64,000 nt of DNA from Eledone cirrhosa. Taxonomy: Eukaryota. The stretch lies in the NCBI GenBank assembly GCA_964016885.1, contig OZ024740.1, positions 407,774,001 through 407,838,000 on the forward strand, given 5' to 3'. Under the pieces are notes generated by a model. The model worked only from the letters and a program-made list of their open reading frames with translations, did not search any database and was not told where the DNA came from. This document shows positions 3,066 to 47,724 of the stretch, piece by piece. Both the position numbers and the translations under genes were made by a program. Every line of letters starts with the position of its first letter. Within the stretch, counting starts at the first letter, position 1.

Positions 3066-6000
3066 TCATCATCATCATCATCATCATTTCACGTCCGCTT
3101 ATCCCTGCTTGCAAGGGTGGGACGGGTCTTATTCAGCACAGCATCTCTCCACTCGTCACGGTCCCTCGTCATCTCCACCGTGAGCTTCAATGATCTGAGG
3201 TCTGTTCTCACCACCTCCGCCCATGTTTTTCGTGGTCTACCTCTACCACGTCTTCCTTCAACTGGCAATTCCTGGCACTTCTTCACCCATCGGTCATCCT
3301 CCATGCGCATCACATGTCCATACCACCTCAGTCTCCTCTCCCGTACACTACGTTCTATCCCTCTCAGACACAATTTCTCTCTCAACACATTTATGCTGGG
3401 TCGTTCACGCACATTTACACTGCACATCCAACGGAGCATGCTTGCCTCATTTCTCTCCAGCCGTCGCATATCCTCTGCAGTTGCTGCCCATGTCTCACTA
3501 CCATGCAGCATCGCGCTCCTCACACAGGCATCATACAACCGGCCTTTCGTACGCAGGGAGAAACCCTTCTTCGTCAACAGAGGAAGCAGCTCCCTAAACT
3601 TCTTCCAACCCGTCCTTATTCTAGATACTATGGCCTCGGAACACCCTCCTCCCATGCTAATCTGATCTCCTAGCTACCGGAAGCTATCCACCACTTCTAT
3701 AGCGCCCTCTTGCATTTGAAAAATGTGTCTATCAGTGCGACTTCTACTGTCTAATTTCCCTGTACATCTACTGCATACATATTTCTCTGTTAGTTTGCCT
3801 GCTATCCTGCTACATCTCTTGTGTACCCAGGATCTGCATTGTGTGCATTTTATAGAATTTATGCCAGTTCCTTTTCTGCATATCGAACATGGCCATTTCC
3901 CTGACGGAATCAGGGTTTTGTCCTCTTTTCTACTCATCAACACTTTTGTCTTAGCTAGATTCACTCTCAGTCCTCTTGCTTCCAACTGCTGTTTCCATAG
4001 CCAGAATTTATTCTCTAGCTCCTCTACTGATTCTGCTATAAGAACCAGATCGTCAGTGTAGAGAAGTTCCCATGGATATCCAGTCTTAAACTCCTCTGTT
4101 ATGGCTTGGAGGACTATAATGAACAAGAGCGGGCTGAGGACCGAACCCTGATGTACTCCTACTTGTATCTGGAATTCCTCACTAAACTCCATTCCTACCC
4201 TGACTTTACTGAGAGTACCTCTGTACAAAGTTTGCACTGTCCTCACAAGCCATTCCTCAACACCTAGCTTCCTTAGGGACCACCAGATGACAGATCGGGG
4301 TACCCTATCAAAGGCCTTCTCTAGGTCAAAAAAGGCTAAGTATAGTGGCTTATTCTTCTCTAAGAACCTCTCTTGCAATTGTCTCACCAAGAAGAGGGCA
4401 TCTGTTGTACTCTTCCCAGGCACAAAACGAAACTGCATCTCATCTAGTTTGACCCTTTCTCTAATTAGTTGTGCTAAAATCCTTTCTGCCACTTTCATAA
4501 CCTGATCTATCAGTTTTATACCCCTATAATTGCTCCTCTCCAAAGCATCCCCTTTAACTTTGTAGCAATTTATGAGAATACTGCTGCACCAGTCTTTGGG
4601 TATGACACCACCATATATAGCCTGATTGATGATGCGTGCAACCAGTTTAGTGCCTACGTCCCCTGATGCCTTCAGCATCTCAGCAACTATTCCCGATGGT
4701 CCGGCAGCCTTACCATTTTTCATTTCGCTAATCGCCTCTTGGACCCTATATTCGTCAATCTCAATAGCTCGTCCCTCTGTCGGATCCACCAAGGGTAATT
4801 TCTCCACATTCATCAGTCTCTCATAATGACATTTCCAGGCCTCCTTTTTCTGATCATTCGTGACACTAAGTACACCGGCATCATCCCAGACACATTTATC
4901 TCCAACAACATCCTGATTTGCATTGACACACTGCCTTGCAATGTGGAACACCGCACGCCTCTGATCTTCCCGTCGCAGAACATTGGCAAACCTCCTACTC
5001 TCTGCCTCCCTGCGTGCTAAGTACACCTGACGTCTAGCTTCTCTCTTAGTGGCTGTATATTCTTCCCTACTCCCACCCTTTTTCCAAGCCTTTCATGCTA
5101 GTCTTTTGTCTCTAATAGCCTTATCTACTGTGCTGTTTCACCACCAGGGGGTCACTCTCTGTCTGGTTGGAGCTCTGCTCCAGCCACAGGTTTCATCAGT
5201 AGCCTGCAGCAAGTTGTCACGTAAGAAATTCCAGTTATTATCTATGTCATACGTGTCTAAATCGTCTTCTTTTTCGTCATATACATCTTGAAGGGCTTTC
5301 CTAAATTTGTATTTTAGTGAAAGGTCTTTTAGCTTCCAGACCTTTCTTCTCCACACCTTCCTATATGTCTCATTCCATCTCTTGCTTACTGAGATATCAC
5401 TAACAACTAACCTATGCTGTGGGGTACATTCTTCCCCAGGGTATGCCTTGGTATTAGACACTATCTGCCTGTCCCGCTGCCTAACTAGTAAGAAGTCAAT
5501 CTGGCTTATGTGCTCACCAGATTTGTAGGTTATTAGGTGATTGGCAGGTTTCTGGAAGTTTGTGTTGCAAATAGTCAATGTACCCGCATCACAAAATTCA
5601 AGAAGTCTCACTACTTCTTCATTTCTTAAACCGTAACCGTGCCCACCATGTACCCCAGTGTAACCATCCTGGAGCTGTCCAACATGACCATTGAAGTCTC
5701 CTGCTAGCATAACGATGTCTCCGTCCTCTGTCATTGCGGTTGTTTGCAAAAGTTGCTCATAAAAGCAGTCTTTCTCATCTTTGCCCAGGCCTGCTTGGGG
5801 AGCATAGACCGAGATGATTGTCAGTAGTCTCCTACCTACAACTAATCTAAGCTTAATTATTCGATTACTAACTCAAACTACCTCTATTGTCTTATTGATC
5901 CATTTCTCAGCCAGGAAAATGCCTACTCCCCCTAGCCCATCATCCTTACCTACCCAGAATAGCTTATAGCTAAGACGCTTGCCTACGACTAGTCTCGCAG

Positions 6001-6433
6001 AGGCACCTCTCCATCTCACCTCTTGCACGCAGCACACATCCACCTGCCTTCTCTCCAGCATCTCCGCTATTTCAGCAGATCTACCTCTGAGAGTGCCAAC
6101 ATTAAGTGTTGCAACTCTGAGATGCGATGTTGTTGTTCCTATTTGTTGCTGTGCTAATAAGAATTTTGGCATTGATACACTGGCTGGATGCCCTTCCTAA
6201 CACCAGCGCCACTTTACAGCATGGACTGGGTGCTTTTATTTGTGCCACCAGCACTAGAGAGGATGTTTTACTAGACTCAAGGGCCCTCTCTACCCCTCCA
6301 TTTTACAGCATGGTCATAAAAAAAAAAAAAAAAAAAAACTTATTGACATGACGCACACAGAAACACTCACACACCAACACTCATGCATACAAACCACAAC
6401 CACACACACGCCACTCACATACCAATACTCATT
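3066..6433 (-). mobile_element. RTE-clade LINE, subfamily A, near full length, disrupted (copy A1)
   Basis: ORF pieces 5873-6172 (APE: VATLNVGTL, CVQEVRW), 5138-5749 (GDFNGH, SQIDF), 3674-5026 (RT, YTDD), 3089-3655. (GAT)n tail directly after the stop. 5' extent taken from identity with copy A2. Confidence 0.95.
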
Positions 6434-7329: not shown

Positions 7330-9651
7330 CATCATCATCATCATCAGGTTTAGCGTCCGTGTTCCACGCTTGCATGGGTTTGGACGGGGGTTTTCCCACT
7401 TGAGGCAAGAGTGGTTGTCTTGCTCGCATAGGACTGTCTGGCGGGTTTTCTACAGTTGGATGCCCTTCCTAACACCAACCACATTTACAGTGTGGGGCTG
7501 GGAGGTTTTTACCGTGTTGCCTACACGGCCACATTACAGCGTGGACTGTCTGGCGGGTTTTCTACAGCTGGATGCCCTTCCTAACACCAACCACATTTAC
7601 AGTGTGGGGCTGGGAGATTTTTACCGTGTTGCCTACACGGCCACATTTACAGCGTGGACTGTGTGTTTTTTTGTCGTGACATCTACACGATCTCATTTGT
7701 TTCGGCCTGGATGTTGTGGGACCAACATAACTTTACATTGAAAGGGGCGGTGTGGATGGGGTGGAGGTGGTGGGACGGGGGGTGTTTTGATAGAGATGCC
7801 TACTGACTGTAGTAGGTTTTTACTTTGTATTTAGGTAAGGCGGGTCTTCTCTATTACTGAGTACCGCCAAAGGTCTCGGTCCAGTGACATTGTCTTGGAG
7901 AGGTGTAAGCGTGTGAGGTCGGAATTTATCAGCTCGTCCCATGTTTTTTCTGGGTCTGCCTACTCCGTGGCTACCGTCTATCTTTATTTCCCTGCACTTT
8001 GTTATACAGCTGTCGTCTTTCATGCGCATCACGTGACCGTACCAACGTAGCCTTCTCTCGAGTAAACAACATCTGATCCCTCTTATTTCTAATTTTTTCC
8101 TTAGTTCGTTTATGCTTTGCCGTTCACGTATATTACTATTGCACATCCAGCGGAGCATGCAAGCTTCGTTCCTCTCTAGTCTGCGTATATCCTCTGCACA
8201 CAATGCCCAGGTCTCACTGCCATGCAGCATTGCTGTTCGTATGGAGGCATCGTATAACCTGCCTTTCATTTTTAGGGAGAACCCTCTAGCGGCTAATAGT
8301 GGTATAAGCTCTCTGAACTTTTTCCATCCAGTTCTGACTCTAGCTACTGTACTTTCAGAGCACCCTCCCCCACTGTTGATTTTGTCACCCAGGTAACGGA
8401 AGCTGTCCACTATTTCTATAGAACCCTCTGCGCAGTTGAAGGAGCTAGTATTTTGTGGGCACTTGCTGCTACTTATTGCACCAGAGCACCGGCCATATGT
8501 AAAATCTATGTTCTTAGTTAGCTTACCTGTGATCCCACTACATCTTTTATGCACCCATACTTTGCATTTGGGACATAAAATAGAGTTTCTACCTACGCCT
8601 TTCCTACACACTGAGCATGTCCATTTCCCAGAAGGGACCGCCGCCTTATTTTCTTTCCTACAAACTAGAACTTTAGTCTTAGCCAGGTTAATTTTAAGGC
8701 CTTTTGATTCTAGGCCGTGCTTCCATGTTTGGAATTTCTTCTCTAGTTCGGTCATTGATTCAGCTATGAGCATTAGATCATCTGCGTATAGGAGTTCCCA
8801 TGGGCAGCCGGGCTTGAACTCCTCTGTTATAGCCTGAAGGGCAATAATAAATAGTAGGGGGCTAAGAACAGAGCCCTGATGGACACCAACTTTTACGCTA
8901 AACTCTTCACTATATTCGTTGTTAATTCTAACCTTACTGACTGTTTCTTTATACATGGCTTGTATAGCTCTCACAAGCCATTTGTTGACACCTAGTTTTC
9001 TAAGAGACCACCAGATAATGGAACGGGGGACTCTGTCGAAGGCTTTCTCCAAGTCGACGAAAGCTAAGTATAGGGGTTTACTTTTAGCTAGGTACTTCTC
9101 CTGTAGTTGTCGTACAATGAAAAGAGCGTCTGTGGTACTTTTGCCTGACACAAACCCGAACTGCATTTCATCTAGATCAATTCTCTCTCTGATTAGTTGC
9201 GCTATTACTTTTTCCGTGACCTTCATGACCTGGTCGATTAATTTAATGCCTCTATAGTTACTCCTATCTAGGGCATCTCCTTTTCCCTTATAGCAGTTAA
9301 CGATGATGCTGCTACGCCAGTCCTTCGGAACAACCCCATTCTGTACGACTTGGTTAACTATCCAGGTGACCATGGTGTGTCCCACCGAACCAGATGCCTT
9401 CAGCATCTCAGCAACTATTTCCGAAGGACCAGCCGCCTTACCCGTCTTCATATCTTTGATTGCCTTGCTTAATGTACTACCCTGGCCTAACACTGCTGGT
9501 CCCTCTATTGGGTCGATGTGGGGGAGACTGTCTTTCTCCCATTTGTTCTCCTCATTTAGAAGCCTTTCATAGTGACACTTCCAAGCTACCTTCTTATCAG
9601 CATCGGTTATGGCAAGTATGCCATCATCGTTAAGTACACACTTCTCCCCGA
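7330..9651 (-). mobile_element. RTE LINE subfamily C, 5'-truncated
   Basis: RT ORF (YADD) nearly identical to the 3' part of 44334-47579. Homology stops at the (TA)n at 9652. Frameshift near 7945. 3' UTR has a 112-bp duplication and a (GAT)n tail. Confidence 0.95.
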
Positions 9652-12072: not shown

Positions 12073-15000
12073 ACATCATCATCATCATCATCATCATCAT
12101 TTTACGTCTGCTTTTCCCTGCTTGCAAGGGTGGGACGGGTCTTATTCAGCACAGCATCTCTCCACTCGTCACGGTCCCTCGTCATCTCCACCGTGAGCTT
12201 CAGTGATCTGAGGTCTGTTCTCACCACATCCGCCCATGTTTTTCGTGGTCTACCTCTACCACGTCTTCCTTCAACTGGCAATTCCTGGCACTTCTTCACC
12301 CATCGGTCATCCTCCATGCGCATCACATGTCCATACCACATCAGTCTCCTCTCCCGTACACTACATTCTATCCCTCTCAGACACAGTTTCTCTCTCAACA
12401 CATTTATGCTGGGTCGTTCACGCACATTTACACTGCACATCCAACGGAGCATGCTTGCCTCATTTCTCTCCAGCCGTCGCATATCCTCTGCAGTTGCTGC
12501 CCATGTCTCACTACCATGCAGCATCGCGTTCCTCACACAGGCATCATACAACCGGCCTTTCGTACGCAGGGAGAAACACTTCTTCGTCAACAGAGGAAGC
12601 AGCTCCCTAAACTTCTTCCAACCCGTCCTTATTCTAGATACTATGGCCTCGGAACACCCTCCTCCCATGCTAATCTGATCTCCTAGGTACCGGAAGCTAT
12701 CCACCACTTCTATAGCGCCCTCATGCATTTGAAAAATGTGTCTATCAGTGCGACTTCTACTGTCTAATTTCCCTGTACATCTACTGCATACATATTTCTC
12801 CCTACCTGTTAGTTTGCCTCCTATCCCGCTACATCTCTTGTGTACCCAGGATCTGCATTGTGTGCATTTTATAGAATTTATGCCAGTTTCTTTTCTGCAT
12901 ATCGAACATGGCCATTTCCCTGATGGAATCAGGGTTTTGTCCTCTTTTCTACTCATCAACACTTTTGTCTTAGCTAGATTCACTCTCAGTCCTCTTGCTT
13001 CCAACTGCTGTTTCCATAGCCAGAATTTATTCTCTAGTTCCTCTACTGATTCTGCTATAAGAACCAGATCGTCAGCATAGAGAAGTTCCCATGGACAGCC
13101 AGTCTTAAACTCCTCTGTTATGGCTTGGAGGACTATAATGAACAAGAGCGGGCTGAGGACCGAACCCTGATGTACTCCTACTTGTGTCTGGAATTCCTCA
13201 CTAAACTCCATTCCTACCCTGACTTTACTGAGAGTACCTCTGTACAAAGTTTGCACTGTCCTCACAAGCCATTCCTCAACACCTAGCTTCCTTAGGGACA
13301 ACCAGATGACAGATTGGGGTACCCTATCAAAGGCCTTCTCTAGGTCAAAAAAGGCTAAGTATAGTGGCTTATTCTTTTCTAAGAACCCCTCTTGCAATTG
13401 TCTCACCAAGAAGAGGGCATCTGTTGTACTCTTCCCAAGCACAAAACCAAACTGCATCTCATCTAGTTTGACCCTTTCTCTAATTAGTTGTGCTAAAATC
13501 CTTTCTGCCACTTTCATAACCTGATCTATCAGTTTTATACCCCTATAATTGCTCCTCTCCAAAGCATCCCCTTTACCTTTGTAGCAATTTATAAGAATAC
13601 TGCTGCATCAGTCTTTGGATATGACACCACCATATATAGCCTGATTGATGATGCGTGCAACCAGTTTAGTGCCTACGTCCCCTGATGCCTTCAGCATCTC
13701 AGCAACTATTCCCGATGGTCCGGCAGCCTTACCATTTTTCATTTCCCTAATCGCCTCTTGGACCCTATATTCGTCAATCTCAATAGCTGGTCTCTCTGTC
13801 GGATCTACCAAGAGTAATTTCTCTCTCTCCCATTCGTTCTCCACATTCATCAGTCTCTCATAATGACATTTCCAGGCCTCCTTTTTCTGATCATTCATGA
13901 CACTAAGTACACCGGCGTCATCCCAGACACATTTATCTCCAACAACATCCTGATTTGCATTGGCACATTGCCTTGCAATATGGAACACCGCACGCTTCTG
14001 ATCTTCCTGTCGCAGAACATTGGCAAACCTCCTACTCTCTACCTCCCTGCGTGCTAAGTACACCTGACGTCTAGCTTCTCTCTTAGTGGCTGTATATTCT
14101 TCCCTACTCCCACCCTTTTTCCAAGCCTTCCATGCTAGTCTTTTGTCTCTAATAGCCTTATCTACTGTGCTGTTCCACCACCAGGTCACTCTCTGTCTGA
14201 TTGGAGCTCTGCTCCAGCCACAGGTTTCATCAGTAGCCTGCAGCAAGTTGTCACGTAAGAAATTCCAGTTATTATCTATGTCATACGTGTCTAAATCGTC
14301 TTCTTTTTCGTCATATACATCTTGAAGGGCTTTCCTAAATTTGTATTTTAGTGAAAGGTCTTTTAGCTTCCAAACCTTTCTTCTCCACACCTTCCTCTAT
14401 GTCTCATTCCATCTCTTGCTTACTGAGATATCACTAACAACTAACCTATGCTGTGGGGTACATTCTTCCCCAGGGTATGCCTTGGTATTAGACACTATCT
14501 GCCTGTCCCGCTGCCTAACTAGTAAGAAGTCAATCTGGCTTATGTGCTCACCAGATTTGTAGGTTATTAGATGATTGGCAGGTTTCTGGAAGTTTGTGTT
14601 GCAAATAGTCAATGTACCCGCATCACAAAATTCAAGAAGTCTCACTACTTCTTCATTTCTTGAACCGTAACCGTGCCCACCATGTACCCCAGTGTAACCA
14701 TCCTGGAGCTGTCCAACATGACCATTGAAGTCTCCTGCTAGCATAACGATGTCTCCGTCCTCTGTCATTGCGGTTGTTTGCAAAAGTTGCTCATAAAAGC
14801 AGTCTTTCTCATCTTTGCCTAGGCCTGCTTGGGAGCATAGGCCGAGATGATTGTCAGTAGTCTCCTACCTACAACTAATCTAAGCTTAATTATTCGATTA
14901 CTAACTCAAACTACCTCTATTGTCTTATTGATCCATTTCTCAGCCAGGAAAATGCCTACTCCCCCTAGCCCATCATCCTTACCTACCCAGAATAGCTTAT

Positions 15001-15464
15001 AGCTAAGACGCTTGCCTACGACTAGTCTCGCAGAGGCACCTCTCCATCTCACCTCTTGCACGCAGCATACATCCACCTGCCTTCTCTCCAGCATCTCCGC
15101 TATTTCAGCAGATCTACCTCTGAGAGTGCCAACATTAAGTGTTGCAACTCTGAGATGCGATGTCTTCATATTTTGTTGTTGTTCCTATTTGTTGCTGTGC
15201 TGATAAGAGTTTTGGCATTGATACACTGGTTGGATGCCCTTCCTAACACCAGCGCCACTTTACAGCATGGACTGGGTGCTTTTATTTGTGCCACCAGCAC
15301 TAGAGAGGATGTCTTACTAGACTCAAGGGCCCTCTCTACCCCTCCATTTTACAGCATGGTCATAACAAAAAAAAAAACTTATTGACACGACGCACGCACA
15401 CACACACAACACTCATGCATACAAACCACAACCACACACACGCCACTCACATACCAACACTCAT
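12073..15464 (-). mobile_element. RTE LINE subfamily A, near full length, disrupted (copy A2)
   Basis: ORF pieces 14906-15169, 14397-14783, 13608-14390, 12102-13562 (YADD). Highly similar to A1. (GAT)n tail. Confidence 0.95.
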
Positions 15465-28049: not shown

Positions 28050-31000
28050 TTATTTACCATGCGACCCTCAGTTCCTACCTCACATCCCTCCCCCCCCCAC
28101 CCCCACATACCACCATAGTCTATTCGACCAATCAAACCTAGCATGCCATTTCCACTGCTGCTGCTACTACCTGCCTAACTAACTCTCTCCTCCTCTGGCG
28201 CATCCCAACACACCCTGCCATTACCCCACCACCACTGTTCTTCTAGCCCTCAATTTTCCCACCGTTATGGATGGATGAGCTGAGAATACATTTGAGCAAC
28301 TCTGAATCAATAGATGAAATATGAATCTGCGAGCTACCAAGCACCCACGTGAAGCGCCAACCCAGAGACCCTCCCCTACGAGTGTCGACAAATGCCCAAA
28401 ACTCCGAGTTGGTACCATAAATGTAGGCTCAATGAAAGGAAGAGCAGGAGAAATCGTAGAAATGCTAGAGCGAAAGGAAGTTGATGTATGCTATGTGCAA
28501 GAGACTAGATGGAGAGGAGGGTCTGCTAGAGTCCTTGTAGGAAAAAGCCAGTGCTACAAATTTTTCTGGGTGGGAAATGACGATGGGATGGGTGGTGTAG
28601 GTATACTACTAGCTGACAAGTGGGTAGATAAAGTAATCTCAGTGTACAGGGTAAATGCAAGAATCATTAAACTCAGACTAGTCCTGAATAAGACAATTAC
28701 CACAATAATATCAGCTTACGCACCCCAATCGGGGCTGCCAGACGAACTTAAGGATAGGTTTTACGAGTCCCTAATACACACTACTGCTCTAACAGACGAC
28801 AAGGACTTCCTAATCATTGCAGGAGATTTTAACGGACACGTAGGTAAACACTGCGACGGCTTCAATAGAGTACATGGAGGCCATGGAGTTGGCACAAGGA
28901 ATGAGGAAGGATTCAGACTTCTAGAATTCTGCGACGCCAATGACATGTCGATATGTAACACAAACTTTAAAAAACCTGACAACCACCTGATCACCTATAG
29001 ATCAGGGGAGCACTCTAGTCAGTTAGATTTTATCCTCATCAGAGGACGTGACAGATGGACGGTCGTAAACACAAAAGCCTTCCCTAGTGAGGAATGTACA
29101 TCCCAACATAGCTTAGTTGTCAGCGACCTCACGGTCAGAACTAGACGAGCCCTGAAACAGAGGCCAACCTGGAGAAGAAAGATCTGGAAGCTGAAAGTCC
29201 CCTCAACCAGTAACAGATTTAAAGATATTTTACTCAACGCCTACGACAGTAAAGAAGAACAGATAGAGACATTTAACGTAGAAGAGAACTGGGAGTTCCT
29301 AAAAAATAACTTACTAGAGGCGACGGATGGGGTTTGTGGCTGGAGTAAGACCTCAAGCAGGAGGAGAGTGACTTGGTGGTGGAACAATAAGGTAGATGAA
29401 GCAGTCAAGGCCAAGAGACAGGCATGGAAAGAATGGAAGAACGGGGGGAGCAGGGTACATTACATAGAGACCAAGAGGGAAGCTAGGCGACAAGTATACT
29501 TAGCTAGGAGGGAAGCAGAGGATAGAAAATTCAAGCATGTTTTACAACGTGAGGACCAGAAACAGGAGGTATTCAAGATTGCGAGGCAGTGTGTCAGAGA
29601 TAGTTGTGATGTCATTGGAGAGAAGTGTATCCGGAATGATAAAGGTGAGCTTGCCCTCACAAGTGCTGAGAAGAAAGATGCATGGAAGAGTCATTATGAT
29701 AGATTACTAAATGAGGAGAATGCATGGGAAGAAGAGACCCTACCCCATGTAGACCCTATAGAGGGACCAGCAGTACAAGTCAGCGGCAGCATAGTAAGTA
29801 AGGCAATCAGAGATATGAAGATGGAGAAGGCAACCGGTCCATCGGGTATAGCTGCCGAGATGCTGAAGGCATCTGGGTCTGTAGGTCACACTATAACCAC
29901 ACGTATCGTTAACCAGGTAATACTAGAAGGGGCCATACCAAAAGATTGGTGCAGTAGCATCATTGTCAACTGCTACAAAGGTAAAGGCGATGCACTAGAT
30001 AGAGGAAACTATAGAGGTATAAAGTTGATGGACCAGGTCATGAAAGTAACAGAAAGAGTTATAGCACAGCTGATTAGGGACCGGGTGAATATAGACGAGA
30101 TGCAATTTGGGTTTGTACCAGGGAGAGGCACCACTGATGCCCTCTTCCTTGTGAGGCAATTACAGGAAAAGTACCTAGCTAAAAGTAAGCCACTCTACTT
30201 GGCATTTGTCGACCTTGAGAAAGCCTTTGACAGAGTTCCACGTGCAGTAATCTGGTGGGCTCTTAGAAAACTAGGAGTAGATGAATGGCTTGTGAAAGCG
30301 GTACAAGCCATGTATAGGGGAGCAGTCAGCAAAGTTAGGATTAGCAATGAGTATAGCGAGGAATTTAGCGTACAGGTTGGGGTCCACCAGGGCTCTGTTC
30401 TTAGCCCTCTCCTGTTCATCATAGTCCTGCAGGCAATAACGGAGGAGTTTAAGACCGGATGCCCATGGGAACTCCTGTATGCTGATGACCTCGCACTCAT
30501 AGCTGAATCTATGGTAGAACTAGAGAATAAATTCCAAACCTGGAAGCAGGGACTAGAGAGAAAGGGCCTCAAAGTCAACATGACAAAGACTAAGGTCCTT
30601 GTAAGTAGACGAGAAAACAGAACCCAGATCCCCTCAGGGAAATGGCCTTGCTCAGTATGTAGGAAAGGTGTAGGTAGGAACTCCATTCTCTGCCCCAAAT
30701 GCAAACAATGGGTACACAAGAGATGTAGCGGGATCTCAGGAAGCTTAATTAAGAATATAGGATTCACATGCAGCAGCTGTGCTGAAACAGCAAGCAAACA
30801 GCCACAGGAAACAAGTACCACCAATCTCTGGGAGGGCCCTGTAGAAACAGTAGACAGCTTCTGCTACCTAGGTGACCAAATTAGCAACGGAGGTGGGTGC
30901 TCAGAAAGTACAATAACTAGGGTAAGAACGGGATGGAAGAAGTTTAGGGAACTACTACCACTGCTAGCTGCAAAAGGCTTCTCCCTCAGAATGAAAGGCA

Positions 31001-31741
31001 GACTGTATGATGCGTGTATCCGAACAGCGATGTTGCATGGTAGTGAGACCTGGGCGCTGAAGGTGGAAGACTTACGTAGATTAGAGAGAAACGAAGCCTG
31101 CATGCTCCGATGGATGTGTAACAGTAATATACGTGAACGACAAAGCATAAAGGAATTGAGAGAGAGACTGAGCATAAGAGGAATCAAATGCTGCGTGCAG
31201 GAGAGGCAGTTACGCTGGTATGGACATGTGATGCGTATGAAGGATGACAGCTGCATAAAAAGGTGCAGAGCACTAGAAGTTGATGGAAACCGCGGAGTGG
31301 GGAGACCCAAGATGACTTGGGATGAGGTGATAAAAGCCGACCTTACCCAACTACACCTCTCAAAGACAATGACACACGACCGTGACTTCTGGCGTCACGC
31401 AGTAATACAGGGTACCCGACCTCCCATGGGTACATGCTGAAGCATATAAACAATATGCCCCCACTCCCCCACCGCAAGGTGGTCGTGGAGGTGCCACGGC
31501 AAAAAAGCACCCAGCCCACACTGTAAAGTGGACGTGTAGGCGCCACGAAAAAGCACCCAGCACTCAGTGTAAATGAGGTTGGTGTTAGGAAGGGCATCCA
31601 GGTGTAGAAATCAAGCCAGATCAGTTCCTGTATGGGCAGGACAAGGTCAGCCGACTGGACACTGCCCCCAACAGGACAACCCATCTAACCCATGCTAGCG
31701 TGGAAGAATGGACGTAAAACAGTGATGATGATGATGATGAT
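28050..31741 (+). mobile_element. RTE LINE subfamily B, apparently full length
   Basis: C-rich 5' UTR, intact ORF, ~300-bp structured 3' UTR, (GAT)n tail into (TA)n. 5' boundary approximate. Confidence 0.95.
28321..31440 (+). CDS. RTE polyprotein: APE endonuclease and reverse transcriptase with PHD-like insertion (1039 aa, intact)
   Basis: GTINVGSM, VQETRW, GDFNGH, SQHSLV (APE); QFGF, DLEKAFD, GVHQGSVLSP, YADD, FCYLG (RT). Confidence 0.95.
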   Translation: MNLRATKHPREAPTQRPSPTSVDKCPKLRVGTINVGSMKGRAGEIVEMLERKEVDVCYVQETRWRGGSARVLVGKSQCYKFFWVGNDDGMGGVGILLADKWVDKVISVYRVNARIIKLRLVLNKTITTIISAYAPQSGLPDELKDRFYESLIHTTALTDDKDFLIIAGDFNGHVGKHCDGFNRVHGGHGVGTRNEEGFRLLEFCDANDMSICNTNFKKPDNHLITYRSGEHSSQLDFILIRGRDRWTVVNTKAFPSEECTSQHSLVVSDLTVRTRRALKQRPTWRRKIWKLKVPSTSNRFKDILLNAYDSKEEQIETFNVEENWEFLKNNLLEATDGVCGWSKTSSRRRVTWWWNNKVDEAVKAKRQAWKEWKNGGSRVHYIETKREARRQVYLARREAEDRKFKHVLQREDQKQEVFKIARQCVRDSCDVIGEKCIRNDKGELALTSAEKKDAWKSHYDRLLNEENAWEEETLPHVDPIEGPAVQVSGSIVSKAIRDMKMEKATGPSGIAAEMLKASGSVGHTITTRIVNQVILEGAIPKDWCSSIIVNCYKGKGDALDRGNYRGIKLMDQVMKVTERVIAQLIRDRVNIDEMQFGFVPGRGTTDALFLVRQLQEKYLAKSKPLYLAFVDLEKAFDRVPRAVIWWALRKLGVDEWLVKAVQAMYRGAVSKVRISNEYSEEFSVQVGVHQGSVLSPLLFIIVLQAITEEFKTGCPWELLYADDLALIAESMVELENKFQTWKQGLERKGLKVNMTKTKVLVSRRENRTQIPSGKWPCSVCRKGVGRNSILCPKCKQWVHKRCSGISGSLIKNIGFTCSSCAETASKQPQETSTTNLWEGPVETVDSFCYLGDQISNGGGCSESTITRVRTGWKKFRELLPLLAAKGFSLRMKGRLYDACIRTAMLHGSETWALKVEDLRRLERNEACMLRWMCNSNIRERQSIKELRERLSIRGIKCCVQERQLRWYGHVMRMKDDSCIKRCRALEVDGNRGVGRPKMTWDEVIKADLTQLHLSKTMTHDRDFWRHAVIQGTRPPMGTC

Positions 31742-43004: not shown

Positions 43005-43329
43005 GGAGGTACATAGCTTAGTGGTTTGAGCATTGGCCTTGCAATCAAAAGGTTGTGAGTTCAATTCTCAGACCGGGTGATGTGTTGTTTCCTTGAGCAA
43101 GACACTTTATTTCACATTGCTCCAGTTTACTCAGCTGTAGAAATGAGATGATAGAGACTGGGGTCACTATCATTCCACTGCAAAGTGGTCGTGGAGGTGC
43201 CACGGCAAAAAAGCACCCAGCACTCACTGTAAATGAGGTTGGTGTTAGGAAGGGCATCCAGCTGTAGAAATCAAGCCAGAATCAGTTCCCGTCCCACCCT
43301 TGCAAGCAGGGAAAAGCGGACGTAAAATG

Positions 43330-43827: not shown

Positions 43828-46800
43828 ATCATCATCATCATCATCATCAGGTTTAGCGTCCGTGTTCCACGCTTGCATGGGTTTGGACGGGGGTTTTCCC
43901 ACTTGAGGCAAGAGTGGTTGTCTTGCTCGCATAGGACTGTCTGGCGGGTTTTCTACAGTTGGATGCCCTTCCTAACACCAACCACATTTACAGTGTGGGG
44001 CTGGGAGGTTTTTACCGTGTTGCCTACACGGCCACATTACAGCGTGGACTGTCTGGCTGGTTTTCTACAGCTGGATGCCCTTCCTAACACCAACCACATT
44101 TACAGTGTGGGGCTGGGAGGTTTTTACCGTGTTGCCTACACGGCCACATTTACAGCGTGGACTGTGTGTTTTTTGTCGTGACACCTACACGATCTCATTT
44201 GTTTCGGCCTGGATGTTGTGGGACCAACATAACTTTGCATTGAAAGGGGCGGTGTGGGTGGGGTGGAGGTGGTGGGACGGGGGTGTGTTTTGATAGAGGT
44301 GCCTACTGACTGTAGTAGGTTTTTACTTTGTATTTAGGTAAGGCGGGTCTTCTCTATTACTGAGTACCGCCAAAGGTCTCGGTCCAGTGACATTGTCTTG
44401 GAGAGGTGTAAGCGTGTGAGGTCGGAATTTATCAGCTCGTCCCATGTTTTTCTGGGTCTGCCTACTCCGTGGCTACCGTCTATCTTTATTGCCCTGCACT
44501 TTGTTATACAGCTGTCGTCTTTCATGCGCATCACGTGACCGTACCAACGTAGCCTTCTCTCGAGTAAACAACATCTGATCCCTCTTATTTCTAATTTTTT
44601 CCTTAGTTCGTTTATGCTTTGCCGTTCACGTATATTACTATTGCACATCCAGCGGAGCATGCAAGCTTCGTTCCTCTCTAGTCTGCGTATATCCTCTGCA
44701 CACAATGCCCAGGTCTCACTGCCATGCAGCATTGCTGTTCGTATGCAGGCATCGTATAACCTGCCTTTCATTTTTAGGGAGAACCCTCTAGCGGCTAATA
44801 GTGGTATAAGCTCTCTGAACTTTTTCCATCCAGTTCTGACTCTAGCTACTGTACTTTCAGAGCACCCTCCCCCACTGCTGATTTTGTCACCCAGATAACG
44901 GAAGCTGTCCACTATTTCTATAGAACCCTCTGCGCAGTTGAAGGAGCTAGTATTTTGTGGGCACTTGCTGCTACTTATTGCACCAGAGCACCGGCCACAT
45001 GTAAAATCTATGTTCTTAGTTAGCTTACCTGTGATCCCACTACATCTTTTATGCACCCATACTTTGCATTTGGGACATAAAATGGAGTTTCTACCTACGC
45101 CTTTCCTACACACTGAGCATGGCCATTTCCCCGATGGGACCGCCGCCTTATTTTCTTTCCTACAAACTAGAACTTTAGTCTTAGCCAGGTTAATTTTAAG
45201 GCCTTTTGATTCTAGGCCGTGCTTCCACGTTTGGAATTTCTTCTCTAGTTCGGTCATTGATTCAGCTATGAGCGTTAGATCATCTGCGTATAGGAGTTCC
45301 CATGGGCAGCCGGTCTTGAACTCCTCTGTTATAGCCTGAAGGGCAATAATAAATAGTAGGGGGCTAAGTACAGAGCCCTGATGGACACCAACTTTTACGC
45401 TAAACTCTTCACTATATTCGTTGTTAATTCTAACCTTACTGACTGTTTCTTTATACATGGCTTGTATAGCTCTCACAAGCCATTCGTCAACACCTAGTTT
45501 TCTAAGAGACCACCAGATAATGGAACGGGGGACTCTGTCGAAGGCTTTCTCCAAGTCGACAAAAGCTAAGTATAGGGGTTTACTTTTAGCTAGGTACTTC
45601 TCCTGTAGTTGTCGTACAATGAAAAGAGCGTCTGTGGTACTTTTGCCTGACACAAACCCGAACTGCATTTCATCTAGATCAATTCTCTCTCTGATTAGTT
45701 GCGCTATTACTTTTTCCGTGACCTTCATGACCTGGTCGATTAATTTAATGCCTCTATAGTTACTCCTATCTAGGGCATCTCCTTTTCCCTTATAGCAGTT
45801 AACGATGATGCTGCTACGCCATTCCTTCGGAACAACCCCATTCTGTACGACTTGGTTAACTATCCGGGTGACCATGGTGTGTCCCACCGAACCAGATGCC
45901 TTCAGCATCTCAGCAACTATTTCCGAAGGCCCAGCCGCCTTACCCGTCTTCATATCTTTGATTGCCTTACTTATTATACTACCTTCAACTAACACTGCTG
46001 GTCCCTCTATTGGATCGATCTGGGGGAGACTGTCTTTCTCCCATTTGTTCTCCTCATTTAGAAGCCTTTCGTAGTGACACTTCCAAGCTACCTTCTTATC
46101 AGCGTCAGTGATGGCAAGTACACCATCATCATTAAGTACACACTTCTCCCCGACAATATCACGGTTTTCCTTGACGCATTGCCTAGCAATCCTGAACACC
46201 TCACGTTTTTGGTCATCGCGTTGTAGAACATGCTTGAACTTTCTTTCCTCTGCTTCCCTTCTTGCGAAGTACACTTGTCTCCTAACTTCCCTCCTGGCCA
46301 CTTGATAGTCTTCTCTACTTCCCCCATCCCGCCATACTTTCCAAGCCTGCTTTTTGGCCTTAATTGACTCCTCCACCTTACTGTTCCACCACCATGTTAC
46401 TCTCCTCCTACCTACAGGCCTGCTCCAGCCACAGACTTCGTCTGCCGCCGTCAGCAGGTTTGCTCTCAGGAATTCCCACTGTTCCTCTATATTATACGAC
46501 TCTAATTGCTCTTCCTTACTGTCGAAAGCGTCAAGTAATTTGCTTTGAAATTTATTTCTGGCTATGGGGTCCTTTAGCTTCCATATTTTTCTCCTGAGGA
46601 TAGTCCTCTTTCGCTGTCTAGTACGTCTCGTCCTGACTATGAGGTCGCTAATTATCAGTCTATGTTGGGAGGTGAATTCTTCATGGGGGTGGGATTTAGT
46701 GTTAACAACAGACACTCTGTCACGTCTTCTGGTAAGGATATAATCTACCTGGCTTGTGTGTTCCCCCGATCTATAGGTGATCAAGTGATTGTCTCGTTTT

Positions 46801-47724
46801 TTGAAGTTAGTGTTACAGATAGTTAAGTTATTTGCGTCGCAGAATTCCAGGATTCTGGAGCCTTCCTCATTTCTAGTACCGAACCCATAGCCTCCATGGA
46901 TTCCGTCATAGCCGTCACAATGTTGTCCAACGTGACCATTTAGGTCGCCTGCAATAACTATATAGTCACTGTCGGTTATTTGGGAGGTAGCGAGCATCAG
47001 TGTCTCGTAGAATCTGTCTTTTATAGCGCGGGGCTGTCCGGATTGGGGTGCGTACGCAGATATTACTGTCACCGTAGTTTTATTGAGGACAAGTCTTATT
47101 TTAATTATTCTGTCGTTCACTCTATTTACGTCTATTATCTTATCTGCCCACTTTTCTGCTACCATGATTCCTACCCCACCCAACCCATTGTCATTTCCCA
47201 CCCAGAAAAGCTTATAGCATCGCTCTTTACCCACGATGAATCTAGCCGACCCTCCCCTCCACCTGGTCTCTTGAATACAACAAACATCGACCTCCTTACG
47301 TTCAAGCATTTCTACAACCTCGTTAGAGCGACCCTTTAAGGTGCCTACATTCATGGTACCAACTCTGAAGTTTTGGATTGCGTTTGGAGGGTGGGAGCGG
47401 TGGGGCGCGGGGGGGGATGGGGTTATGTTAGCCATCCTGGGCCGAAACAAGGAGGAGTGCTTGCATTCTCGTCCACGAGGTGAATTTGGCTTTATCTTTG
47501 GCATTGTCGCTGAGCGTCCACATTTTTCTCTCTTCAACTCTCCAGGATTCCGTAGTCCATCCATCATATCGAAAAGCAACCAGTTAAGCGATAGTATGGG
47601 CCTCTGACTTATGATTGGTCCACGTAATAATGGTGGTGCGTGGGGGCGGGAGGGAGGGCTGATGGGTTGTTAGCGAGAATGTAAGGTTTAAGATAAGATC
47701 GCCGTATTTTGGGCATGATTTAAC
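43828..47724 (-). mobile_element. RTE LINE subfamily C, apparently full length, within (TA)n
   Basis: Intact ORF, ~500-bp 3' UTR with duplicated unit, (GAT)n tail, TA tracts on both sides. Confidence 0.95.
44334..47579 (-). CDS. RTE polyprotein: APE and RT with PHD-like insertion (up to 1081 aa, intact; true start uncertain)
   Basis: GTMNVGTL, IQETRW, GDLNGH, SQHRL; DLEKAFD, QGSVLSP, YADD, FRYLG. Confidence 0.95.
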   Translation of the reverse strand: MLFDMMDGLRNPGELKREKCGRSATMPKIKPNSPRGRECKHSSLFRPRMANITPSPPAPHRSHPPNAIQNFRVGTMNVGTLKGRSNEVVEMLERKEVDVCCIQETRWRGGSARFIVGKERCYKLFWVGNDNGLGGVGIMVAEKWADKIIDVNRVNDRIIKIRLVLNKTTVTVISAYAPQSGQPRAIKDRFYETLMLATSQITDSDYIVIAGDLNGHVGQHCDGYDGIHGGYGFGTRNEEGSRILEFCDANNLTICNTNFKKRDNHLITYRSGEHTSQVDYILTRRRDRVSVVNTKSHPHEEFTSQHRLIISDLIVRTRRTRQRKRTILRRKIWKLKDPIARNKFQSKLLDAFDSKEEQLESYNIEEQWEFLRANLLTAADEVCGWSRPVGRRRVTWWWNSKVEESIKAKKQAWKVWRDGGSREDYQVARREVRRQVYFARREAEERKFKHVLQRDDQKREVFRIARQCVKENRDIVGEKCVLNDDGVLAITDADKKVAWKCHYERLLNEENKWEKDSLPQIDPIEGPAVLVEGSIISKAIKDMKTGKAAGPSEIVAEMLKASGSVGHTMVTRIVNQVVQNGVVPKEWRSSIIVNCYKGKGDALDRSNYRGIKLIDQVMKVTEKVIAQLIRERIDLDEMQFGFVSGKSTTDALFIVRQLQEKYLAKSKPLYLAFVDLEKAFDRVPRSIIWWSLRKLGVDEWLVRAIQAMYKETVSKVRINNEYSEEFSVKVGVHQGSVLSPLLFIIALQAITEEFKTGCPWELLYADDLTLIAESMTELEKKFQTWKHGLESKGLKINLAKTKVLVCRKENKAAVPSGKWPCSVCRKGVGRNSILCPKCKVWVHKRCSGITGKLTKNIDFTCGRCSGAISSSKCPQNTSSFNCAEGSIEIVDSFRYLGDKISSGGGCSESTVARVRTGWKKFRELIPLLAARGFSLKMKGRLYDACIRTAMLHGSETWALCAEDIRRLERNEACMLRWMCNSNIRERQSINELRKKLEIRGIRCCLLERRLRWYGHVMRMKDDSCITKCRAIKIDGSHGVGRPRKTWDELINSDLTRLHLSKTMSLDRDLWRYSVIEKTRLT

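Follow-up and report, generated by a model that had tools for sequence, protein, structure and literature searches.

What is the array of short, self-complementary units that fills the 5′ UTR of a LINE in Eledone cirrhosa, and what does it do for the element? The stretch of DNA analysed (64 kb, here called the window) comes from an animal genome of 3.0 Gb that is rich in microsatellites. It contains no fewer than three related LINE families (A, B and C), each with one ORF encoding AP endonuclease and RT, which we label RTE-type, provisionally, from their anatomy, (GAT)n tails and domain homology. An array of ~145 nt (window 6313-6168, minus strand) occupies the 5′ UTR of family A, a high-copy element. 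It comprises a remnant hairpin, the W, Y and X layouts, and a terminal stem, Z. The features of family A in the window are:

12101..15363, minus: another family A copy (97% identity) that carries this array but not the 13-nt deletion of the focal copy
6318..6338, minus: T-run linking the array to a low-complexity upstream block; in the young subfamily the block replaces the older 5′ UTR
6298..6313, minus: unit 1, a truncated X unit, hairpin CCAT/ATGG alone; older subfamilies have the complete unit, CAG strand included
6256..6297, minus: unit W, predicted pseudoknot, homolog of the Kojima/Ceph domain
6229..6254, minus: unit Y, predicted pseudoknot GTGC/GCAC plus GGTG/CACC, with an A-rich L3
6209..6228, minus: unit X, predicted small pseudoknot CAG/CTG plus CCAT/GTGG, with L3 TAAA
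6168..6207, minus: unit Z, stem of 6207-6203 with 6187-6183 around an AGGAAG motif
6170..6172, minus: upstream AUG, out of frame in the family and in frame only in the focal copy
3089..6121, minus: the one ORF of LINE family A, broken, with AP endonuclease, RT and a weak PHD-like match
3066..3128, minus: family A 3′ terminal hairpin and (GAT)n tail, with no preceding pseudoknot array

The focal copy (about 6317-3088, minus strand) is dead, with an in-frame stop at 5875-5873 and later frame breaks. Family A itself is abundant and young: a first look gave 1711 candidates, and the 40 that were scored are 98-100% identical.

A preliminary description of this locus had read the array as a series of H-type pseudoknots ending next to a start codon. 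The strings it quoted all occur at their minus-strand positions, and GGCATCC does end 13 nt before the ATG at 6172. A pseudoknot scan recovers W, Y and X as mutually abutting H-type layouts, so that part of the reading stands; the first unit, however, is a hairpin alone, and the terminal unit has no CCT partner in family A. With either parameter set, none of 300 dinucleotide shuffles matched the stem energy summed over the best chain of non-overlapping pseudoknots, an energy to which W contributes most. The number of units taken alone was matched by 18/300 and 9/300 under the two sets. In nested folding the array does not stand out (z 0.63; 142/200 shuffles do as well).

W carries the strongest evidence for a fold. 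Its first stem (S1) pairs 6297-6293 with 6283-6279, its second (S2) pairs 6291-6285 with 6262-6256, L1 is the single base 6292, and L3 contains a 3-4 bp hairpin that is weakened in the focal copy by a private change at 6267. MAFFT put gaps in the wrong places in both W and X; a script was therefore used to count X, and the W alignment came from a covariance model. This model was built from eight W units of this genome, with S2 and the L3 hairpin fitted and S1 left out, and the resulting alignment has 34 rows (E up to 0.7). S1, which the aligning model did not contain, is 91.9% paired with 2/4 pairs changed on both sides, and S2 is 89.9% paired with 4/7 pairs changed on both sides. Slid controls pair at 44-51%, versus 91% for the true register. 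The covariation score was reached by 0/500 shuffles, a count that is not to be read as a probability because the rows represent only three or four lineages. G-U pairs are numerous in the W stems, and old W copies carry fixed mismatches. W thus has two interleaved stems with compensatory changes in both, although pair counts here, as in Y and X, ignore the relatedness of rows.

Y was evaluated on 11 variants, hand-chosen from the commonest. They are 80.8% paired with four double-sided pairs, and the covariation score was reached by 7/500 shuffles. S1 is 86% paired (1/6 pairs double-sided) and S2 is 74% paired (3/5), weakly so in one family C variant, which supports both stems of the H-type layout among these variants. 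The S1 cores of X and Y are nearly invariant, and because S1 of X does not vary, covariation speaks only for its S2. The X loop helix reaches at least 4 bp in 12/16 variants seen at three or more places versus 25/62 rare variants (permutation p 0.0008). Unit 1 was rejected as a pseudoknot, being an X unit that has lost the first strand of its stem.

Z differs from the other units. All six pairs of its outer stem are present in 67/96 copies of this genome and 104/134 metagenome copies. A possible second helix joins GGCAT (6192-6188) to ATGCC (6172-6168), spanning the upstream AUG. A GCC follows Z in 79/95 own copies (background 8.6%) versus 2/134 metagenome copies; a Z pseudoknot was therefore rejected as a universal feature and is at most lineage-specific. 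The AGG/CCT pairing at Z is a minority state (14/96). The Z motif begins short repeats in metagenome contigs, an estimated 160,000 or so stretches. These repeats (L101-L236) start with a hairpin and the Z AGGAAG stem, end in a GT tail, and are probably non-autonomous animal retroelements.

The covarying loop/3′ pairs named in the preliminary description exist in homologous units, and its proposal of a structured cis-element of tandem H-type pseudoknots gains support as a predicted fold, with covariation far wider than it had seen. We conclude that selection acts on RNA pairing in the array, and that the array is composed of modular RNA units, predicted to be H-type pseudoknots, kept by compensatory base changes. 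The knots very probably form in W, quite probably in Y and, on balance, in X. The least probable of the readings considered is that the array is a DNA-level regulatory motif or a neutral tandem repeat whose pairing is a by-product. The tandem duplication of units, the unremarkable nested folding and the suggestion by Kojima (2018, PMC5786205) that a transcriptional regulator might bind the homologous domain are consistent with it. The double-sided changes and G-U pairs in both W stems, the number of different S2 sequences across phyla (below) and the more frequent pairing of common than of rare, decayed X variants argue for RNA.

Where does such an array come from? Kojima (2018, PMC5786205) described a sequence domain conserved in RTE 5′ UTRs and Ceph-SINEs, to which W is homologous. 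The covariance model built from W units of this genome detects the Ceph-type domain in 8/8 loci (E 4e-4 to 0.04, on a rough calibration) and in 5/6 in another run. In the supplement rows available to us, read by eye, all seven W loop-helix positions pair in 29/31 family rows, two rows that have no 5′ strand being excluded from the count. The 7-bp helix is complete in 18/19 non-AviRTE families and 11/12 AviRTE rows, and the two exceptions pair at 6/7 positions. At least 16 different S2 sequences occur across phyla in these rows. The inner S1 pair has changed on both sides in SepiaSINE, Sepioth-SINE2A and RTE-13_SP, and the outer pair in RTE-3_BF and RTE-13_SP; the AviRTE_GRu row breaks S1. On these rows, paired letters of W co-change in related elements from sea anemones to birds.

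The homology extends beyond W. In the Ceph domain an X-like knot precedes W and a Y-like unit follows it, the same order as in the focal array, and the two share the 5′-UTR place, upstream of a single APE-RT ORF in an element with a (GAT)n tail, and capture by SINEs. They differ in that the second half of the domain (the CTAGGAG...CTCTGA motif) is absent after the focal W, where Y-X-Z stands instead, and in that sister families carry units in the 3′ UTR. The second half is present after the W-like K1 units of older family A subfamilies, and older copies have tandem, near-complete Kojima domains upstream of W. The focal array is, by this sequence comparison, a derived homolog of the Kojima domain and not a full member. 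The sequence domain was already known, as were pseudoknots in retrotransposon UTRs. The available text of Kojima (2018) makes no mention of pseudoknots, stems or hairpins for the domain, and neither its tandem-pseudoknot fold nor its move between UTRs was found in the literature searched, which took in PMC13708176, PMC5723415, PMC4758252 and PMC9115989 and outside which most subscription papers lay.

Several other occurrences came to light. A ~500-nt non-coding repeat of the E. cirrhosa genome combines a degenerate W with an intact second half of the Kojima domain (L071:1500-2100, plus strand; L061, L098, L253, L265, L272, L287); no ORF match was found near this repeat in the three loci tested. 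Two GTDB records titled as bacterial genomes (loci L356-L378) contain many Ceph-SINE-like repeats, probably from cephalopod host DNA in the assemblies. The Kojima motif had no match in viral contigs.

The preliminary description had also raised an HDV-like ribozyme. HDV-like ribozymes do occur at RTE 5′ ends (Ruminski 2011, as cited in the available part of PMC5786205), and the array shares with them a pseudoknotted RNA in an RTE 5′ UTR, W having a 7-bp helix that encloses a 3-bp hairpin. The strand order differs, however, and we rejected this candidate: the array has no L3 consensus, P1.1, catalytic C in J4/2 or nested double pseudoknot. Rfam gave nothing meaningful at the locus (three matches, E 1.4 or worse), one tRNA in 20 related loci, and microsatellite noise only in a further search. 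An HDV-like descriptor matched nowhere in the focal region or upstream block. It matched twice in 3.0 million strand-bases, once inside a coding region, which we take as chance, and once at L238.

The 5′ UTR of family A has been remodelled around these units. Older subfamilies have arrays of repeated W-Y-X blocks, with a full X unit at the position of unit 1; copy number varies from 1 to about 6 repeats, and units duplicate in tandem. In the young subfamily a low-complexity block of up to ~0.9 kb, together with the T-run, stands in place of the older W-Y-X repeats, and a GT-rich block lies immediately upstream of the T-run in 23/30 young loci. This replacement of the older 5′ UTR by a CAA/GT/T-run block, common to 23/30 loci, is a case of 5′ switching. 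At locus L333 (also L329-L331), many tandem old K units lie within 7.8-kb repeats.

Is the array then an internal ribosome entry site set against a start codon, one of the options first suggested? A survey of 30 young loci gave 26 with a readable endonuclease start and 4 with none. In 25 of these 26 the ATG at 6172, formerly taken as the family start codon, is out of frame; it is in frame in the focal copy because of a private 13-nt deletion near 6127. The deleted bases hold the main-frame start and are present in contigs from two public runs (X4 and X5). The main frame opens 41-50 nt after Z in 24/26 readable young copies. The two older subfamilies often lack the upstream AUG; of their 26 scored copies, 12 have a main frame that begins 6-7 nt after Z, and the others are broken or start later. 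We also noted that the out-of-frame upstream frame of the young subfamily, mostly 26-29 codons, overlaps the main start (window 6172-6090, minus strand; L002-L030), and that its AUG can pair with the GGCAU of Z.

The remaining evidence on this question comes from the other families. Family B runs from 28318 to 31720 on the plus strand and family C from 47669 to 43850 on the minus strand, among other copies; the RT proteins of related families are about 66-68% identical. A weak PHD-finger match lies right after the RT domain in all three LINE proteins (3677-5092 minus, 28318-31437 plus, 44337-47669 minus; E 5e-5 to 6e-6). Outside family A, the array-bearing features of the window are:

31460..31620 (approximate), plus: X/Y/X/Y/X/Z array in the family B 3′ UTR
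43945..44200 (approximate), minus: Y/X/Z array in the family C 3′ UTR
43005..43329, plus: SINE with a family B array and a family A tail; tRNA-like head and CORE-like segment, by eye

In the family C copies at 43960-44090 and 7460-7590 (minus strand), a 112-nt internal duplication affects the X-Y-X-Z block of the 3′ UTR. The SINE has an X unit (43120-43150, plus strand) at the position corresponding to the MIR1_AMi rows in the available supplement of PMC5786205. ARAGORN found no intact tRNA in the window.

Placement was surveyed in 1.05 Mb of genome plus the window, which yielded 96 Z anchors: 5 before an endonuclease start, 25 after the RT C-terminus, 15 in CORE-bearing SINEs and 51 unassigned. 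The array lies within 700 nt upstream of the endonuclease start in 5/5 family A versus 0/8 family B/C cases, and none was found at the family A 3′ end. Since A has the array only at the 5′ end and B and C only at the 3′ end, each autonomous family seen carries one array at one end. Among 16 array-bearing SINE copies, 12 join a B array to an A tail and two a B array to a B tail; the other two are unassigned. The new observations are thus a family A array in the 5′ UTR, X/Y/Z in the B/C 3′ UTRs, and SINEs that join the B array to the A tail. These placements and joins point to a movable RNA module rather than a fixed 5′ IRES.

A classic 5′ IRES, one that holds the start codon at a set spacing from the final pseudoknot, consequently appears highly improbable. 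The short spacing in older A subfamilies would suit it, but the young subfamily has not kept that spacing, families B and C carry the array in the 3′ UTR and not in the 5′ UTR, and frames of 1040 codons are open in many family B copies, which have no 5′ array. The earlier idea of an IRES next to the start codon is weakened twice over, by the out-of-frame AUG and by the occurrence of X/Y/Z in B/C 3′ UTRs and SINE bodies.

The knots might instead block 5′-to-3′ exonucleases and so protect RNA downstream of them that is uncapped or has been cleaved. In family A a compact stack of predicted pseudoknots stands ahead of the ORF, where it would be well placed for this, and a ribozyme double pseudoknot is used in this way in R2 templates (PMC13708176, in the part available). 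We regard this as unlikely: in B and C the array would shield only the last 150-250 nt, no Rfam xrRNA match was found, and 24 C and 12 B copies show no clear pile-up of 5′ truncation points.

We tentatively favour a third proposal, that the ribosome or translation factors dock on the array wherever in the RNA it lies. Docking would let the element RNA be translated and lie beside the newly made reverse transcriptase, and a host factor common to all contexts would bind the knots. SINEs, which are untranslated, may retain the knots so as to recruit RT in trans, by the route that the ribosome model proposes for Alu and its SRP domain, and the link to the ribosome therefore leans on this analogy. 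The Alu domain is important for Alu (PMC7245038, available part). Likewise, the 3′-UTR pseudoknot domain of TMV stimulates translation and can be replaced by poly(A), according to the accessible portion of PMC5382211. We rank docking first because of the old position just before the start codon, the 3′-UTR position as in TMV, and retention in SINEs as in Alu. Fixed spacing would not be needed, since the start of the young subfamily lies further on, behind an out-of-frame AUG. The free position of the array and its lack of match to its own RT partner (the B-array/A-tail SINEs) speak for docking. The same mixing also fits structure-based binding by the related RT proteins, and the near-invariance of S1 in X and Y, the incomplete pairing of Y S2 and the fixed mismatches in old W copies count against docking.

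Binding by the RTE protein itself is possible, and we place it directly behind docking. The pseudoknots would then serve, with the 3′ terminal stem, to select or hold the template. This accords with the array lying directly upstream of that stem in B, C and SINEs, and with the bipartite RTE SINEs that keep the 5′ domain adjoining the tail (PMC5786205). In the portions of the sources available, A-clade R2 proteins bind a 3′-UTR pseudoknot-hinge-stem that compensatory mutants rescue (PMC12180492), and RTE-1_MD templates are used with cognate 5′ and 3′ UTRs (PMC13708176). Against it, the family A array is ~3 kb from the tail and would need 5′-3′ bridging, SINEs mostly combine parts of two families, and the domain also occurs in Ingi and R4 elements (PMC5786205).

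Known systems offer partial parallels, drawn here from the available parts of the papers. Like the A-clade R2 structure, the array is a non-LTR retrotransposon UTR pseudoknot and in B and C precedes a terminal stem; the R2 structure, however, is a single knot of another clade with a demonstrated protein contact, whereas the units here are tandem, movable and known from sequence. The Tobamovirus 3′-UTR domain (PMC5382211), which has three knots according to a title cited in PMC5723415, likewise places several small pseudoknots in series in a UTR, but the array has no Rfam similarity to it and its host is an animal retrotransposon, so the likeness is one of analogy.

Kojima (2018) left open why RTE LINEs keep this 5′-UTR domain across animals and why SINEs repeatedly take it. 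A defined fold with compensatory pairs turns the domain's retention into a mutate-and-rescue question, and because the module switches between 5′ and 3′ UTRs among sister families within a single genome, fewer mechanisms are possible. The fold could also guide the rational design of RTE-based gene-insertion templates, the UTRs of which were tuned by screening (PMC13708176, part available). It may extend to the CORE domain of MIR. A wider and rather doubtful generalisation is that in many animal SINEs the conserved body consists of pseudoknots that all serve one function, working from either end of the RNA as the RTE counterpart of the Alu SRP domain. The knots likely aid the element RNA in reaching ribosomes and being copied, which would explain their retention in parasitic short elements.
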